From the NCBI RefSeq assembly GCF_964204865.1, contig NC_135261.1, positions 12,276,001 to 12,340,000 on the forward strand: a stretch of DNA of 64,000 nt. The letters are read 5' to 3'. This stretch comes from Styela clava (taxonomy: Eukaryota). Under the pieces are notes generated by a model, which saw only the letters and a program-made list of their open reading frames with translations, was not told the origin of the DNA and did not search any database. Within the stretch, counting starts at the first letter, position 1. The number at the start of each line of letters is the position of its first letter. Positions 14,551 to 63,056 of this stretch are shown in pieces. The position numbers were made by a program, and so were the translations under genes.

Positions 14551-17500
14551 TTAATAATGTCGTGACATCATGTAGCACGTGATTACGATCATGTGAGCGG
14601 TAACCAGCATTATTGTGTTCACACTCAGTCTTGAAGCGTGACTCGTTGTAGATTCAGATGAAGACTCGGTAAACATTGATGTTGAATTACTGGGCGTTTC
14701 CATGGTAGATACATTTTTAATAAATGGACCTCCATAACCAAGATCATCCCAAAAGTCACAAATTTCGGCTCTAAATTCATACCTAACCTCACTAGATTGC
14801 GAACGGATGTACATATACGGCCATGGTTGACTTGAACCTGTAAATATCAGGTAATGCGAGTGTTTAATATTATAAAATGGCTAACCTCGAAATATTTGAT
14901 TCATGAAATGGAATTGACTATTTTATTCGAATCTCACAAAATATTAGAATTTTCACATCGCAATTTGCAGTTCCTATAAGTTGACAATGTTCAAACCAAC
15001 AATCGCGTGGGTGGTATAATAGTTAAAGCATCATATGACAATAATTCATGAACTTTCATATAATAAGCGTCTATTTCATTTATGATCACTTAGGCGTAAA
15101 CTGACATAAAGACGGAGAAAAGGTTTACTTTAAGCGATATGTCACATGAAAAACTGTTATATATTTTATTTTTAATAATTGTACTTAGCCAGGATATACC
15201 AATGAGACATGCTAATTATGAAACATATATTAACTACCTTATTATAATTGACACGGATAAGTGATGCGAAAGTTCGCAAATAATATTTTAGTGTAATAAT
15301 CGTGTAACAGAAGGGAAATTTTTTTGTGTCTAATTGACAAATTGGCGATGAGAATCTTGTACGGATAATAGTTAATCATAATACTTACCGTCACCGGTAT
15401 TGTACTTAGGCCATGATGGAAAATTTTCTTCAAAGTTTAACAAACCACTGGACGGGTTTCCTGTTTGAGCGAAGCCAGCCCAATATATGCTGAATTGATT
15501 CTCAACAGATAAGTGATCTTCCGTGTAGGTTTCGAAGCTGAATAATAGATTTAGATAAATAAATATAAATAGGTTTTCAACAAACTTGACCCAACTGATC
15601 GATAACAAATTCAATAAAAAAATGACACAAAGTGATGGCTGATGAATCGTATTATAAGAAGTAACTTTTTTTAGATTAAATTTAAAACCTAACGCACAGT
15701 GTTTTTTCCATTCCTAGGTTTCCTTATTACATACCTAACTTCTTCAACTGTTCTGAAAACAAATGGCACATCAGCTGAATGGTAAGAATAATAACATCCA
15801 GTGGCGTTTCCGCCATTCGCATAAAAGCAACCCAGAAAAAGTACCTTTTCATCAAAAACATAATAATACACGGAAGCAGATGTCGTATTTGCTGCTAATC
15901 TAAAACAATGTAATACAGTAGATAAATATTTGAGATTTACTTAATTATATATATTGGGATATTTTTCGGCGCTCCACAAGTGTGTGTACCAATATGGAGG
16001 TAACTAATTTTGTTCGTCTACTTTACATCAAGTGCGTAAAGGAATTGAAACCTATGTGGGTACATTCACTTGTCTAACATTGACAGTACCCGAACTCGTA
16101 ATAGAACTAAAATACGAAAAATCGGAATCAAATTATGGCCTAACCTTAACCTGGGACACACACTACGGGAGTACCCATTTTACAACGTATTCTCATTGCT
16201 CTAATGATAAAACTAATAAATCATATACTGATGTGAAATAGTAAAGACTTATTTTTCGTCAGCAATGGCTATTGTTTCTTTTATTCGGGCATGACGGAAC
16301 ACCTGGTGAGTATCATGGTTCGTTTCCAAACAATAATCTGTTCTGGGAATTGACGTTCTATTTTTTTTTTATTTTTTTTTTATGTCAAAACTTGTGTCAG
16401 CGACAAATACACTGGTAGGTCATGAACGTTATTTCAAATACTTTCTAAATGTTTTTACAGTGATATATAGTTAGTTACCTTGCCATATGCCTATTTGGAC
16501 ATGTGAATGTGTATTCTGTTGTCTGCTTCCCATAAGTTACTCGATAATCTTCACCTTGATTGGGTGGATATATTTCCATGTATTTGTCAACGATGCTTCT
16601 TGCCATTCCTATATCACCAAATGCGTCAACATTGGCAGCCTGAAACGAATTTTCAAACTTTCTATTACTAATAAAATACAAATTAAATATTATGTTTACA
16701 TAAGGTCTCACTATTTGTTGATCTATTTATGTTGACTAGAACAAAAACATACCTTTAATCAATAACTTACAAAAAATATATTTTCAGTGTAGTTGAATTG
16801 TTTTGGAATGGAAAACATGATGATGTCGTACTCTTCGGCAGTAACACCGATAATCATATCTTTTTCAGAATTCCAATTTCCGCTCCTGTATAACTCCATC
16901 GGCCAATCGGTAAATTCAACCCCATCAATTATAGGTAGATAAGTTTCGGATGTATAAAGCCCAAAACCTTCTTCCTGAGCCGTCGATTCTTGTACCAATT
17001 GTGTTTGATTTATAATATGTTGTGCGGACGAATTGCTGTTAGACGAAGATATAAACAAAAAATATGAATAATGCTATAAATTATATTAGAATAGGAATTA
17101 TCATAGTGGCTCCAGATTTAATTACACTAAAGCAGAAAATAGGATAAAATATAATACATCACATCAAATAGAAATGAAAAATGTATCATGACCTATATAC
17201 TCATGTTGCCAAAATGACAAGCTTACATTAAACAAGCTCTTTCGTCTCCGGTACATCCTAAACTTTGTAATAATCTGTTAGTAATCCTCAGTGACATCTC
17301 CGGTGAAGGATAATAAAATGAATAGGCAGCTGGATTACTTTGTTGAATTGAGTTCGTGTAAAGATTTTTACTGATGGGGGAAAGTGTATGGAACATGACA
17401 GATTGCGCTCCAGCACTGTCTCCAAATATTGTGACCTGAAATGAAAAGAAAAAATTCAAAAACACCACAAAGCATGAAGCAGTATGTAACTTGAAACATT

Positions 17501-19718
17501 CCATTTCTGCAAATAGTTTATCATTTCAACACTTAAAATACTAACGAAACAACAAACCCTGGTTTTATCTCCTCCGAAATTTTCAATATTTTCTTGGACC
17601 CATTCTAAAGCAAGTTGCTGATCTTTCAATCCTTGATTTCCACCTATGCTATTTTCTTCTGCTTGTTGATGCATCAAAAAACCTAGAGGACCTTTGCAAA
17701 CATACGTAACGCTGTTTATACTCATTATACGTAGATAGTACGTAGAAGGGTGAATTTTGCCAAATGAAAACATGCAGTGAATCGTAATTTGATATGAAAT
17801 GTTTGTCGTTCAACATTTGCGAGTGCTTAGATTTACATAGGTTTTTTCTGAACCAAGTACGGACATGATACATTATACATAAACTATTAAAAAGATAATT
17901 TATACCTAAACGGTAATTAATGGTAACAACCACTGTATTTGTGAAATTGGCAAGTTCTCGTCCGTCCGTTCTCGGCTGTGTTCCTGAATTTATTGTAAAA
18001 AATCCTCCATGAATATAGAATAATACAGGAAGACGATCAGATGGAGGTTTAGAAGAATCACTCAAATCCAAAGACGATGGCGTGAACACATTTAAAATTA
18101 AACAGTCTTCTTTCATCTGCAATAATTCACAATACCAAATTTATTATCATTATAAATTGTAGAGCCTTTGTTACAATTATTATAAGGTTAACTATAAAAC
18201 AACTTTTAACTGATTTACCAAGAAAACGATACATACATACAATGCAGTTTGTGTATTGTTAATGGGGGTTTTATAACAATTTTATATTCTCTATATATAT
18301 ATATGCAAGTTATTTTCAATGATGAGCTATATATAACGATATATATTTGTTAGAATCGAAGTTATCATAATTTCACCGCTTACATTTAAAATACATTGTT
18401 CTTCAGTGACAGATTTACAAACATCCTCGTATTGATAGCATTGAAGGAAGTTGTTTGAAGTTCCATTTATATGTTCATGGGGTATTGTAATCTTTTGAGG
18501 CGGCTGAAACCTGAAAATCAGTAATAATATTTATTTACATTGCCTCGGCATAATTTTCAATAATATTGGGGTACTTGTCATTTTATAATTACTTTTAAGT
18601 TTGTTCGTCTTATAAATGTACGATTGAAGATATCAAAACTTTTTCAGTGTTTTTTAATATGTTTGATTTATTGTATTGATTTACTATTTGTTTCTAACCA
18701 AAAAAGCTCGGCAATTAGCGGATCTATCTTTATTGGATAAATAATCACATTTACGATAGAAACATTAAGATGAATATATAGTTTCGGACAATGTGCAATA
18801 GATATTGAGATGAACTTTTGCGCAAACTTATTGTATACTGAAAATACTAACCTTAACTCGCCTATGGGTGGTTGAGCATAAGGAATCTCCCAAAATGCAT
18901 TGGATTCGGCGGTCTTTGCTCCAGAAACTAATCCCGACGAGGTGTTTACTTGAGGGAAATCCAGTGTAACTTCTACAAATAAAGCGATGTATCGAAGTCT
19001 ATTCACGTGTTTTAATAATATTTTGTGCAGTTTCATTTATTCAAGTACTATTATCAATTACAAATCGTTTTTTTTCAAATTTAGATCGACATCGTAACTA
19101 ATATTGGTATATGTCAAACGTAAAACGATTATGTTTCGTTCCATTAATGGAGTTCAACCATTTTTACAGAAACTTATTTTTCTGCACCTTAGGTTGCTTT
19201 GCTTCGAATTTTGTTAAAAAGTTTCGAATACCAAGTTTACAAGCAAAGAACAAGAAATATTTCGATTATTTAACTAACAGTTTAGTTTGCGTGAAACTAA
19301 GTACATTTCCTTGCTCTCTATGCCTTTGCGCAGGTGGATGCGTATTACGCAAGGCTGTATGCGTATTACGCAAGGATGCTGTAGCAACAGTGTAAATGGC
19401 TATTCTATTCAATTCAAGAGTCTTGCTGCACATGAACACAAATACATTTCTGTAACGTTTCGTCTGACCGAGGTCAGAAATATATTGTGTTCGTGTACCG
19501 CACGACTCTTAAATTGAATAGAATTCGATTATTGTTGTTATTTTGTGTTGAAACATACCACTAATTCTTCTCGATGCACGAACAGATTCAATTTTCAATC
19601 GGTTACTTTGTACTTCGCGTTTATATGATTCATACAAATTAGGGCCATTTGGTACATTTAGAGATTCTACAATAACAATCCCATAAAATGCTATGGCAAA
19701 TGATATTTTAGAAACCAT
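14551..19718 (-). CDS. Type-B carboxylesterase (cholinesterase fold), predicted GPI-anchored; copy A (662 aa, 11 exons)
   Basis: Exons 19718-19559, 18972-18852, 18510-18384, 18116-17906, 17691-17558, 17435-17227, 17035-16771, 16639-16479, 15899-15735, 15537-15389, 14837-14551 total 1989 nt with no internal stop. Motifs: [43 protein letters not shown] (Ser), GVTAEE (Glu), YHSAD (His), CDFW; S/T linker plus hydrophobic tail. Confidence 0.93.
15968..16175. mobile_element. ~210-bp non-autonomous element in intron 8 of copy A
   Basis: Imperfect terminal inverted repeats ggcgctccacaagtgtgtgtacca / tgggacacacactacgggagtacc, a subterminal cctaaccttaacc motif and T-rich flanks. Confidence 0.55.
19285..19480 (-). 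repeat. Penelope-pLTR-like short repeat with partial hammerhead-like core (intron 1 of A)
   Basis: Minus strand reads TCTGACC-TC-GGTCAGA-C-GAAACGTTA-CAGAAATGTATTTGTG. The downstream part aligns with 57540-57670. Includes a tandem atgcgtattacgcaagg x2 (19338-19375). Confidence 0.55.
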
Positions 19719-20101
19719 TATATTTAAACAATAAATACAAACCAATCTGTGTAAAACAAGTTCAAAAACAACTTTTGATTAGGATTGTCGATTAGATTAT
19801 AATGACTTCAACGTCAACGCATACTAATTGTATATTGAAGCTAAAAAAGCATTCCAAGATGGGAGGAGTTATTTAAAAAATAAATAGTTAAGTGTCATAG
19901 ACACGATCATATGTGAATGTGAGGCATTAAAAGTGGCTAATTTACAATCGACAGCTAAATTAAGAAATTTCGGCATTAAACTATACGATTAAAAAGCACT
20001 CAAGCAAACTGGATCAAAATTTTAAACAACTCAAGAAAGATTTTGTATAGTTTTTTATCAGTAAGATCCGAACACATATTTCGTCTTTAAACACTCTACA
20101 C

Positions 20102-20780
20102 CAGTGGTTCTCAAACGGTGGGGCACGCCGCACAAGTGGGCGTAGACAATTTTTTAAGGGGGCGCAAAGCTAAATAAAAATATGTTTTTTTTTTTAGATT
20201 CGATCTTGTTGTGAACTCCCAAAATGTAAACTTACAAGAAATCCATTCATTGTCAACGAGTACAGTCTGCCAGAAAACTGCCAAGAAGAATTCTTAGAAA
20301 TTAATTCAAAAGACGACTCTGGAACAATGCCACTCAGCGAAATCTGGGTTGAATATGCGAAAGTGTACAAAAATGTGGGTGATGTTTCTCTGCGAATTTT
20401 GATACCATTTTCTTCAACGTATATATGCAAAATTGGGTTCTCCACTCCAAAACACGTGGACACAAAAGCCCTAAACCAGCTTCCCTATGAAAGCGATTTA
20501 CGATGTGCATTTTCCAACACAAAACTTCAAATTAAAGATCTTGTCAGTTAAAAACAACTGCACCAATGAAAATAACAACAAATTTTGCTTGTTTTTAAAA
20601 CTCTTCAAATATTTCATTATTTACGTCCACGTATTTTCAACGTGTATTTTGAATAAACCATACTTTCGACATACTATCTGTTCTTTGTAACTTATTGTTA
20701 GCTAGTTATTTTTGTGGTAGTGCGCGAGACTTGACAAATTCTAAAAACCAGGTGCGGCTTAAAAAGTTAGAGAACCACTT
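20102..20780 (+). mobile_element. Internally deleted hAT (Buster/Charlie group) transposon
   Basis: TIRs cagtggttctc / gagaaccactt and 8-bp TSD ctctacac/ttctacac. The internal ORF 20327-20551 (…LRILIPFSSTYICKIGFS…ESDLRCAFSNTKLQIKDL) resembles the C-terminal dimerisation domain of Buster/ZBED5-type transposases. Confidence 0.9.
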
Positions 20781-22156
20781 TTCTACACCGTTTAAAAGAG
20801 TGAATGCAATTATAGAATTACAATATATTTTTTGTTTTATAACAATGTCTTTAAGTGTGAATAAATTTTATTGCAGTAAATAGGCGTGCGATATATATGA
20901 GTAAAATGATAATAAATGAAAAAAGAGACACAACATACTCCCTGCTGCATTTAAATAAATTAACTATTTTCTGATAATTGAAAATATGGAATGTTCAAGA
21001 AAAGTCAAATAATAATAAAAACCTATATTTAAAGAGCCATATTTAGAGCTAAGTGGAAGTTTCCAGATCAGACATACAAGGTCAAGAGGAACTGAACTAA
21101 TCATTTAATTGTTATACACCTAGGTCCTAGTTATAATGATAATGTCTTTTGTATAGGCTACAACTAAAGTCTGAAATATCTGAACAAATATTTTTCATAT
21201 AAACACTAAAATCAACTTTTTTTAATTTTTTATTCATATATATATTTTTTTATTTAATATATATAATATTCACAAAATCTCTATAATAAAAAATTCTAAT
21301 GTCAAGAAATGTGAACATCGGTAAAATCGTATTTGAAATTATTCTCTCAATGCCAGAATGTTATCAATAGAACAAAATTGGATAAGTGAGTACGTGGAAT
21401 AAAATAAAAAAATTAGAAAAAGTATTTTCCCAAGCCTGGTATTGTTGTTAACTATCTATGCAGTTAATTAGAATACGCTTACTACGATATGCCAGTACAT
21501 TTGCTGGAATTCCTCACATCGTTATCCTCAACCTCACACGACACACCTGCAAGTATTTTGATGCCCGAACAAACACGATTTATTTCCTGTTTACTCTTCT
21601 CTACGTAATTTTTTTGTGTCTAAAGACGAGGAATTCTTATAAAAGTTGGTAATTTTCAAATTCTGCATTTTTTGGCAAAATTGTTTATCAATCATAGTTT
21701 TAATTTACATAGTTAAATTTTGAAAAGTGTATAATTTCCTATTTTACATTGTTCGACATTTTTTTATTTGACAAATATAATATTAGGTAAAACTTTTTTT
21801 ACAACCTCAACTTCACTTTTCCCTATTCTTCTAATATCTGAAAATATTTTGTACCGATTCTTTCACCAACCAGTCGTGAGTAGCAACTGACTGAAAATTT
21901 TTAGCTTGCGTTTATCACAATGAAATTCAATGAGGTATAACCAAATATTTGCCAGTCAAACAGTGAAAATAACTCGGTTTAATCACGCGATCCTTTAAAA
22001 TGCGATCCAGCGTAGCGATATATGTCACATAATAGAATAGTATGGCCTTGAGAAAATTATAGGGTTAAGGAAGCGTGGAGTATAAACTAAAACTCAGCCT
22101 ATGAGCTAGATTGCATATTTGCCCATACTTTCGAGAAATCGGTCACGATGGCTTAA

Positions 22157-22364
22157 CATTGGTATTGTTCTCGATTTACCTAAAATAAGTGAACAATTGG
22201 AAAAAAGAGAACAAAAATTTACCAGGTCTAAAACCATTCTTGGGGTGGTGTGGCGTTGTACATTGGTATTGTTCTCGATTTACCTAAAATAAGTGAACAA
22301 TTGGAAAAAAGAGAACAAAAATTTACCAGGTCTAAAACCATTCTTGGGGTGGTGTGGCGTTGTA
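22157..22364. repeat. Perfect 104-bp tandem duplication
   Basis: 22157-22260 is identical to 22261-22364 (cattggtattgttctcgatttacc…ggtgtggcgttgta). Confidence 0.95.
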
Positions 22365-23941
22365 AATGATCCATCTAATACGAAACTAGGTTGCACTTTG
22401 CACATATATTCACCTTTTCGCCGTACTGGAGCAGTAATTATTACCTGTTGCCTTGTGTCGTTTTATCTTTGTTGTTGCAGCCACGCCTCAAATTCGACGT
22501 GTAAGAGTGAGGAAAATTTTACGTGGATAGATTTCAGATATTTGGTTTTAAACAGAAATATGATTTTGTATTGCACCGATGAAGTAATAATTGTCTACGT
22601 GCTATTTCATTGTGAAGATATCGGTATCTTATTTTTAAGTTGTAATATTTGTCAATATCACGGTACAAGATAAATCTGCGATAGATTGGAAGGCTTGCCC
22701 TTTTGCATAGTAATTATGGGTAAGATTGAAACTATGGGGCGCCACCTACCGATTCAATCATATAGAAATCACACACCGACTTCAATTGTTTATTCATGCT
22801 TCCACAATTGCCATCACAAAATAAACTGATTTCAATTGCTTAGTGGATGTAGTGCGTAGCATAAAGAAGCTTTTTATATACCATCCACTACATACCTATC
22901 TGAAATGAGTACTGAACCAATTTTATTTCTGTGTAGCTAAAACTTTGTCCAGTATGCATGTATGACGAAAAGATCTAAAACCCCGATATGACCAAATTTT
23001 CGAAACTGTACTAGAACGAAGAGGTCACTAACTCAACATTGTATTTGCGATTTTACACAACTTTAGCGTGGATTGCTTCTGGCTGTCGAAAATAAAAAAA
23101 TCAGTTGTAATGACTTGACCAACCACCTAGATTTTGATTTTTTTTTTAAACTTTCTGTGCATATTAAAACATTGGTCTTTGTAAGGTTTGTAAAGGTGTA
23201 ACACGGTAAAAAAAGGGGGGATATCACTATTATAAAGCATAAACACCAACCAATTTAAAATTGGCAGGGACTCAAAGAAGTAATTTATTGATAACACGGG
23301 CCGCCACTGTACGTAGGTGGTAGCTTTTTTATTAAATTATTTTAACGCCAATGTGTTTTACTGATGCTCGTTGTATCCTCGTAGTAAGATGAACTACGCA
23401 TGGCCAAATCAGCTACATGGAAATCGCATATGTTACATAGTAATTTTAATTGAATATGGAACATGTTTTGTCAAATATTAGGATATTCTGAAGCAGTATT
23501 ACTCTCTGTTCATAAATTAATTGATTTTTCAATGGAAGTCATTGGCTTGGATATTTTGAAATTTCAGAATAGAGTTTGGTACGAAACACTTTTTACATAA
23601 ATACCAACACCCACATCAAGGACGTTCATTCTTGTTCAAAGGCGTGCACAGCTCAATAAGACATTCGGGTAAAATTTAACTGAATTTTAGGATGCGATCA
23701 TGGGATACTGTTTTAAGCCGCAGTCTGAAATGGGACTTGTGAGGACTCCTTTGAAATCATTTAGATTGAAATGAATATGTCCCAATATTGAGTTCTGTCT
23801 TCATAACTTTGATTTGATAAAACTATATTTTGTATGTCAATCATCTAGTTTTTATATTTAATGCTATAATCTAACCTATAAATGTGACATGCAATTATTG
23901 TTCAAATTAACCTTAAAACATTTTCATGAAAGAATTCATAA

Positions 23942-30913
<6,972 letters not shown>

Positions 30914-36673: not shown

Positions 36674-43054
<6,381 letters not shown>

Positions 43055-48894: not shown

Positions 48895-55946
<7,052 letters not shown>

Positions 55947-61887: not shown

Positions 61888-62062
61888 ATGGATTTCAGAG
61901 TATTTGTAGGAAGTATATTATTAGGAATTATAATCACTGGTGGTAAAGCAAACAAGGTCACGGAAGGTTTGCGACTGTTTCTTCCCGATATACTTCGCTT
62001 CGCAAAAGTGGAAAGAGGAAAGTTTACATCGGCCGAAGCTTCTGATTTAGAAAGGATGAATG
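61888..62062 (+). CDS. Exon 1 of a fifth carboxylesterase paralog (copy E); remainder outside the window or lost
   Basis: MDFRVFVGSILLGIIITGGKANKVTEGLRLFLPDILRFAKVERGKFTSAEASDLERMN followed by G|gtttgt. The exon is 175 nt, as in D. Upstream 61175-61887 and intron to ~62442 align with D. Confidence 0.8.
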
Positions 62063-63056
62063 GTTTGTTATATCAATAATATATATTTATTCGCCAATAA
62101 GAAATATGTGGAGACTGATACTAGATCACAGACTTATGACAAAATTATTGTCATCTGTGGCATTTTTTAAGTATATTTTTCGAGTATATGATCTCGGCTG
62201 AGAAACATAAATTAAAATATAAGTGGCTGTTTAGTAAGATAGCAAATCATTAACGAATGTTTTTAAATTTTCGTCTATAGCTATCAATATATATTAGTTA
62301 GAGGATACTATCTCTAAGGATAATGGACTCAGTTGACAGATATGTAGCGTAATAAAGAGCTAAAAAGTTTGGTAATTTAATTGCCGGTCATTGTGTTCCA
62401 AATGTTACTTCAAAAATACTTTCAAACGACGTGAACGTTCAGTTGTATTAGGCCACGAGCCGAGGCCCTGAAAAACGCCTAGAAAGTGAGTTTCGTAGCG
62501 CACATCAGGTAACTACCTGAAAATGATTTTAAAATGTTCCCTAAAAATTTAGTAACAAATATTGCCTCGTTCCCCCTTCCAAAAGTTGCACGTTTTACGG
62601 AAAAGACGCTTTTACTACAAGAAATATGTGCTGCGATCTGTCTTATATTCTCTACATTTTCGGCAATGAACAATGACTTCTGCACGACGTAACAATTGAA
62701 TCGAATCAGCTGTTAGCGAGCGGATGAATATTAGTTATTATTGCTCGACCTTGCGTTGAGTTGGGCAGCCTTTCCACAGCCCTGTTTAGTTATTATTATT
62801 AATTAAGTTATGCTAAGACGTTGTTGAAAAATGTATAAGTAAGTTATTAAACACTTGTAGATCCTTACCACGGATATGGGCCGTGAGACGAAGCCTTGAA
62901 AACGCCCAGAAAATGAGTTTCGTAAAATTCTTCAGTTTCGTGTGAAAATGAACATACTGAACGCATCACAGCTTGTTCCACAATCCTGATGCGAAATTGA
63001 ATATAAGAGGTTCCCGGAAATTCAATAACCATAAGTTTACAACACATACATAAGAA

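Follow-up and report, generated by a model that had tools for sequence, protein, structure and literature searches.

Why does one exon of an otherwise divergent esterase gene in Styela clava closely resemble that of an inverted paralog? Self-comparison and translation of the window, the entire 64-kb stretch of DNA analyzed here, identified four complete COesterase (cholinesterase-like) paralogs, A, B, C, and D, together with exon 1 of a fifth, E (Table 1). Genes A, B, and C share the minus strand; D is inverted relative to A and is read from the plus strand. The adjoining stretches of the genome contain the remainder of E as well as F, and members G, H, I, and J are located approximately 1.5–1.7 Mb away. 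Exon 6 of A and that of D are 94% alike, with 12 of 209 nucleotides differing, whereas their exon 4 differs at 61 of 211 nucleotides; B and D differ at 25 of 209 in exon 6. These values reproduce exactly the approximate counts of the first-pass annotation. Exon 6 of A also resembles those of B and C (24/209 and 23/209 differences, respectively; 89% identity), and in exons 2–5 and 7–10 the identity of A to B, C, and D is 58–77%. An unseen D-like copy had been suggested as a possible partner in an exchange, and such a copy was found: E, whose exon 6 lies beyond the end of the window, matches A at 95% of the 206 nt compared in this exon. A genome search with exon 6 of A returned nine matches, with E and D level at 95%, and no paralog among these nine DNA matches carries a displaced exon 6 of the 70% type. 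A protein search of the genome with exon 4 yielded 17 matches, none of which was closer to A than B–E are (76–81%). When introns 2–10 of A were compared with those of B or D, none of the nine exceeded the shuffle maximum, whereas all nine introns aligned between B and D, in agreement with the earlier impression that the A introns are unalignable and the D and B introns alignable. A retains its own introns 5 and 6, and D and E retain B/C-type introns. Gene A is a mosaic in which the similarity stops at or inside the edges of exon 6.

Table 1. Genes, exons, and sequence tracts of the esterase cluster, with positions counted from the first letter of the window.
Feature	Position	Strand	Remarks
Gene A, COesterase-family paralog, 11 coding exons, motif GDSAG	14551..19718	-	Exon 1–11 splice joints in RNA-like contigs; Pfam PF00135 on its allele P0001
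Exon 6 of A: predicted nucleophile elbow with catalytic Ser, then helix and strand, second Cys pair; homogenized exon	17227..17435	-	
Putative recent conversion core, exon-6 nt 17–178 of A	17258..17419	-	2 private changes each in A, D, and E per 162 nt
3' flank of A exon 6, nt 179–206, putative older layer	17230..17257	-	Differences per 28 nt: C 2, B 4, D or E 4, G or H 10
A-specific Asp codon preceding the catalytic Ser	17418..17420	-	Asn in B, C, D, E, F, G, and H
29-nt tract in A exon 4 that matches D exactly over FYIHGGFFT	17992..18020	-	Not significant
Gene B	23942..30913	-	Exon 6 = 26823–27031
Gene C	36674..43054	-	Exon 6 = 39579–39787
Gene D	48895..55946	+	Exon join agrees with record P0030
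Exon 6 of D	52492..52700	+	Core common to A = 52508–52669
29-nt tract in D exon 4	50762..50790	+	
Exon 1 of gene E, end approximate	61888..62064	+	Other exons beyond the window; exon 6 = G000:C16:12347612-12347820

Several features of the gene models and the surrounding sequence were also observed. The source records break E into two models, and B likewise, and exon 5 of E (G000:C16 about 12346870-12347000) contains an in-frame stop in this haplotype. In the source models, exon 1 of B (30742–30913) and of C (42883–43054) is shorter than that of D and E, which points to an alternative donor site within this exon. High-copy short repeats occupy parts of intron 8 (~15966–16170) and intron 1 (~19272–19470) of A and show very deep coverage in all runs. 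Ahead of A, a segment at 20088–20780 has similar inverted ends and, judged by eye, is possibly a small DNA transposon; a tandem duplication of 104–108 nt, 99% identical, lies at 22156–22367.

Silent divergence (pS) was calculated by the Nei–Gojobori method and compared by Fisher test between exon 6 and exons 2–5 plus 7–10. Neither the pS counts nor the trees include exons 1 and 11; F, I, and J contribute exons 4–6 only, and K and the five weaker family matches on C1, C2, C6, C9, C17, and C18 were excluded from both analyses. Between A and D, pS is 7/49 (0.14) in exon 6 vs 196/296 (0.66) in exons 2–5 plus 7–10 (p = 5.8e-12), and between A and E it is similarly lowered relative to the other exons (p = 2.4e-11). 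For A–B and A–C, exon-6 pS is 0.33 and 0.31, vs 0.73 in the other exons. A simpler tally of differing codons among codons for the same residue agrees with these results. The exon-6 tree groups A with D and E (bootstrap 87–90), whereas exons 2–5 and 7–10 place A outside B–E (98–99). In AU tests, the grouping A+(D,E) was rejected for exons 2–5 and 7–10 (p = 0.020 and 0.021); for exon 6 alone, the standard topology was barely rejected (p = 0.046), and A+(B,C) was accepted (p = 0.23). The exon-6 signal resides more in branch lengths than in topology. A GENECONV-like permutation over 534 polymorphic sites identified exon 6 as the best segment for both A–D and A–E (p = 1e-4, the lowest value attainable with 10,000 shuffles). 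Within exon 6, 12 sites show A=D=E against B=C and 3 show the reverse pattern, and only 4 sites separate A from all of B–E, vs 24–59 in each other exon. Per-exon trees, silent divergence, and a GENECONV-type analysis, all suggested in the first-pass annotation, thus favor conversion, the exon-6 tree being discordant.

We consider it probable that the exon-6 mosaic of A arose by repeated non-allelic gene conversion that was possible only inside exon 6 and that left two layers. Within nt 17–178 of the exon, A, D, and E differ from B and C at 14–17 sites. The five changes common to D and E relative to A and to B or C (nt 3, 179, 189, 193, and 201) all lie outside this interval, a clustering with maximum-gap p = 3.8e-4 over all sites and 2.3e-4 over variable sites. 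Nucleotides 179–206 of A are still B/C-like (2/28 differences to C; p = 0.003 vs 31% expected). Since this flank is close to C and far from G and H, it appears to have been homogenized earlier; the two-layer test draws on 5–8 sites. The earlier proposal of an exon-scale conversion between inverted paralogs is therefore retained, but not as a single event between A and D, given the older layer in B and C and a recent tract limited to approximately nt 17–178.

In the proposed sequence of events, an old exchange between A and the B–E lineage, around the time of the split between B/C and D/E, would have made nearly the whole of exon 6 alike. It probably began at the 5' end of exon 6, where the coding sequence is most conserved; sliding windows at the exon 5/6 junction show 75–88% identity even to the distant G and H. 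Exon 6 would then have stood above the identity required for efficient conversion, which would have permitted a later exchange of ~162–175 nt between A and the D/E lineage. As the introns on either side share no homology, the tracts would not run past the exon edges. According to one review, conversion occurs mainly above ~80% identity and is rare below it, with an efficient length of ~200 bp (PMC3924818). A feedback in which one exchange eases the next is likely, as a 209-nt exon lifted to ~90% identity fits these reported thresholds. Counting against this best explanation, the first exchange would need to start at roughly 75–80% identity, a range in which conversion is uncommon. A double crossover with subsequent loss may have taken the place of non-reciprocal transfer.

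A simpler history would be one single conversion from the D/E lineage that replaced nearly all of exon 6 of A after the B/C split, with later changes clustering at the ends by chance. One event would suffice, and the silent divergence of B/C from D/E in the core (8–9/47 codons, 0.17–0.19) matches that of the introns (0.14–0.25), as if the tract were native to D/E. We nonetheless regard this history as unlikely, given that all five D/E-derived changes fall outside nt 17–178 (p = 2–4e-4) and that the eight differences between A and D/E are themselves clustered (p = 0.007–0.009). Furthermore, an E-type contig of run X6, with 21 differences from D in exon 6, would require at least one further exchange in the cluster.

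The template may also be questioned. Reverse-transcribed mRNA, most plausibly that of A, could have served instead of a neighboring chromosomal copy, as the tract is wholly exonic and spliced contigs of A carrying the mosaic exon 6 occur in 5/5 RNA-like runs. However, no paralog has lost an intron, and the tract never extends into exon 5 or 7. The conversion between D and E described below includes introns, so DNA-to-DNA conversion is active in the cluster, and the exon limit is already explained by the absence of intron homology. An mRNA template is accordingly very unlikely.

Purifying selection on the protein and on silent sites, for example through an RNA or splicing element, could in principle preserve exon 6 with no exchange at all. 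This exon encodes the catalytic Ser, and across the family its first 19 residues hardly vary. However, the control pairs D–G, D–H, A–G, A–H, and G–H are all saturated in exon 6, with pS of 0.68–0.75, equal to that of their other exons (p 0.38–1), and nine pairs with F, I, or J reach 0.59–0.85. Exon 6 is therefore not constrained at silent sites in this family, and the loss of silent divergence is confined to pairs of A with B–E. Likewise, pN to G and H is 0.19–0.23 in exon 6, like that of the other exons, and constraint cannot bring A nearer to D and E than B and C are. Within this genome, the control pairs refute constraint, and we assign it a minimal probability. Neither a congruent exon-6 tree nor a uniformly low exon-6 dS, both named in the first-pass annotation as observations that would speak against conversion, was seen. 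Exon 6 thus shows several marks of interlocus gene conversion: a bounded segment that is alike including its silent sites, a discordant tree, and the exclusion of constraint.

Sequence data from other samples bear on whether the mosaic exists in transcripts. Spliced joints were read from contigs, not from reads; no run is recorded as RNA, and the designation RNA-like is a guess made by software. In contigs from X5, X6, and X9, which represent three studies, the exons of A are joined across canonical introns, with no differences in exon 6. A-type contigs from X7 and X10 differ from D at 10 and 11 positions within nt 1–206 (10 for A of the window); D/E-type contigs of these two runs lack cover of exon 6, which is not evidence of silence. 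The junction between intron 5 and exon 6 of D has an exact match in a 151-nt record of X11, and the Hi-C run X12, with ~1–2x depth on A, was of no use. In the protein record P0001, a second allele of A, 21/662 aligned residues differ from the window-type record, none of them in exon 6. Insertion of D/E-type sequence into A by an assembly or polishing error, conceivable in a repetitive cluster whose best DNA runs may come from the assembled sample, is refuted by the independent spliced contigs, which in three studies join exons 4-5-6-7 of A with the same exon 6, by the identical exon-6 peptide of P0001 despite 21 differences elsewhere, and by private sites that separate A from D and E, so that its probability is negligible. 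A sweep-like reduction of polymorphism in exon 6 of A was also considered but is not supported: exon 4 likewise has no differences in 3/3 runs, and 0/69 residues is compatible with ~3%.

For repeated conversion in two layers, the direction of the recent exchange is about evenly balanced between A and the D/E lineage as donor, and both directions fit the reference haplotype. In the core, the silent divergence of B/C from A/D/E (8–9 of 47–48 codons) equals the B/C-to-D/E intron divergence of 0.14–0.25. This fits a D/E donor, and it also fits an A donor if the older layer dates from about then. A single exon-6 type of A in all five runs and in both protein records, set against the divergent exon 6 of the E-type contig of X6, would speak for A as donor. 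Direction was also sought through branch lengths to G and H, GC3, and intron-vs-tract divergence, all of which were uninformative. Three word-indexed searches and one full scan found no sufficiently close ortholog in related species; hence, age and direction are judged from this genome.

The X6 contig mentioned above is 429 nt long and covers exons 5-6-7. Its exon-7 part shows three differences from D, the same count as E, and its exon 6 has 21 differences from D (E 4, C 24, B 25) with a C-type base at nt 110. It may stem from an E allele that escaped conversion, from conversion of E by C, or from a graph switch within the 40 nt that C has in common with D/E (exon-6 nt 139–178). As a spliced contig of E type (compared with window positions 52488–53182), it suggests that E may vary in exon 6 or that hybrid haplotypes may occur in the cluster.

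The protein record P0001 matches Pfam PF00135 with 354.5 bits (cut-off 27), and the best match among solved structures is a cholinesterase (E = 1.7e-58); the source labels of the Styela clava records are "crystal protein-like" and "cholinesterase-like". By sequence alignment alone, a Ser-Glu-His triad is predicted from the Ser of GxSAG, the Glu of GVTxEE, and a His in exon 9, each at its cholinesterase position. Exon 6 codes for the GxSAG elbow and continues up to the second Cys pair. Across codons 7–59, A differs from B or C at three residues and from D or E at one. The residues that A, D, and E share against B and C in the core are Pro20 and Tyr38, the latter located two residues ahead of a Phe whose aligned counterpart in the cholinesterase QSGxxNxPW loop is Trp. 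This Trp is an acyl-pocket residue of cholinesterases. The recent core is thus predicted to alter two or three residues, none of them catalytic and one or two beside the position of the acyl-pocket Trp. The catalytic Ser is invariant, and the base that distinguishes the A-specific Asp, nt 16, immediately precedes the recent core; selection, or mere closeness to the exon edge, may account for its retention. The earlier statement that conversion "shuffles active-site modules" was therefore overstated. The predicted structure has pLDDT < 50 over residues 258–294, most of exon 6, and is unreliable there. A bolder functional reading holds that exon 6 is a catalytic cassette copied repeatedly, under selection, among escaped paralogs, with the Asp as a one-codon island and with E possessing two wild exon-6 types that differ near the acyl pocket and hence in substrate range; we consider it unlikely.

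The first-pass annotation had also treated a 29-nt tract over HGGFF as a sign of conversion. The tract is indeed identical in A and D and broken in B and C, and E breaks it too, but it does not stand as a conversion signal (p = 0.055 for one pair, uncorrected). In a simulation of 10,000 trials that kept the amino-acid pattern and reshuffled synonymous matches by degeneracy class, a run of at least 29 nt occurred in 5.5% of trials for the A–D pair, and the site patterns of exon 4 are symmetric, 5 vs 5. A separate micro-conversion of this tract is possible, but the tract is within chance, and runs of 27–41 nt occur in exon 5 of distant pairs. The oxyanion loop itself reads HGGFF in A–D and F, HGGSF in E, G, H, I, and J, and HGGAF in K, and has a third Gly in cholinesterases.

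Further similarity was observed elsewhere in the cluster. Introns 5–8 of D (51872–54306) differ by 3–4% from those of E (G000:C16 about 12347000-12349400), and introns 2–4 differ by 10–14%; the low divergence in introns 5–8 reflects a long D/E conversion that includes introns. Exon 5 together with the end of exon 4 (D ~50800–51871) is 98–99% alike among B, C, and D (permutation p = 0.003–0.007), and their intron 4 differs by 20–23%, which indicates further exon-limited similarity. In exon 5, silent divergence is low in distant pairs too, and silent-site similarity near the active site may there have other causes. A 41-nt identical run between exon 5 of B (27642–27775) and G (L007) covers an 11-residue motif (simulation p = 8e-4), and over the same motif, identical runs of 32 nt (D–G) and 27 nt (G–H; L007/L008) were found. 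Either ancient micro-conversion between clusters separated by 1.5 Mb or constraint on silent sites would account for these exon-5 runs.

Regional gene conversion between loci is an established process, of which exon 6 of A is a well-supported further instance that points to no novel mechanism or enzyme function. Its low background identity (~70%), its limitation to a single exon, and its layering make it notable: one exon remains accessible to gene conversion when the remainder of the gene, with its unalignable introns, has already escaped. In practice, trees or primers based on the catalytic-Ser region misplace gene A. A–D have the same fold family as the PF00135 COesterases, with the GxSxG elbow and with Glu and His at the predicted triad positions. 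Cholinesterases carry a third Gly in the oxyanion loop, whereas A–D have Phe at the aligned position. Deuterostome carboxyl/cholinesterases are reportedly treated by Johnson and Moore in 2012. Among titles and abstract openings, we found no published account of this esterase cluster.

Exon-1 exchange alleles occur at the human CES1 locus. The copies CES1, CES1P1, and CES1A2 are also carboxylesterases, arranged as inverted neighbors in structurally variable haplotypes; unlike A and D, they share ~99.5% identity and are distinguished by promoter and exon 1 (bioRxiv 10.64898/2025.12.03.692062), and the word "conversion" is absent from that text. The mammalian pairs BMP8A/B, DDX19A/B, and TUBG1/2 show a similarly prolonged homogenization of specific segments in old duplicates (PMC2720389). 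However, those pairs were chosen for at least one similar intron and were demonstrated across species, whereas here no intron of A aligns and one species is considered. In GOT1 of Tigriopus californicus (PMC3728101) and in the HMA4 model (bioRxiv 10.1101/2025.10.29.685298), enzyme or transporter paralogs likewise form a mosaic of converted and divergent sequence with inter-paralog haplotypes, and introns escape earlier than coding sequence. GOT1 and HMA4 contain islands of divergence in mostly homogenized genes, whereas gene A contains an island of identity in an otherwise escaped gene.

The Dlx duplicates of Capitella teleta (PMC3199776) resemble the present case in that inverted, linked, and divergent paralogs share a segment of ~150 bp homogenized down to its silent sites. 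In that study, 25-bp identical runs in conserved motifs were viewed as possible chance, and the converted tract lies over the homeobox and reaches 12 nt into an intron. Unlike in Dlx, the tract in Styela clava lies inside one 209-nt enzyme exon, the exchanges span 35–54 kb with two other paralogs between the partners, and the homogenization is resolved into two putative layers.
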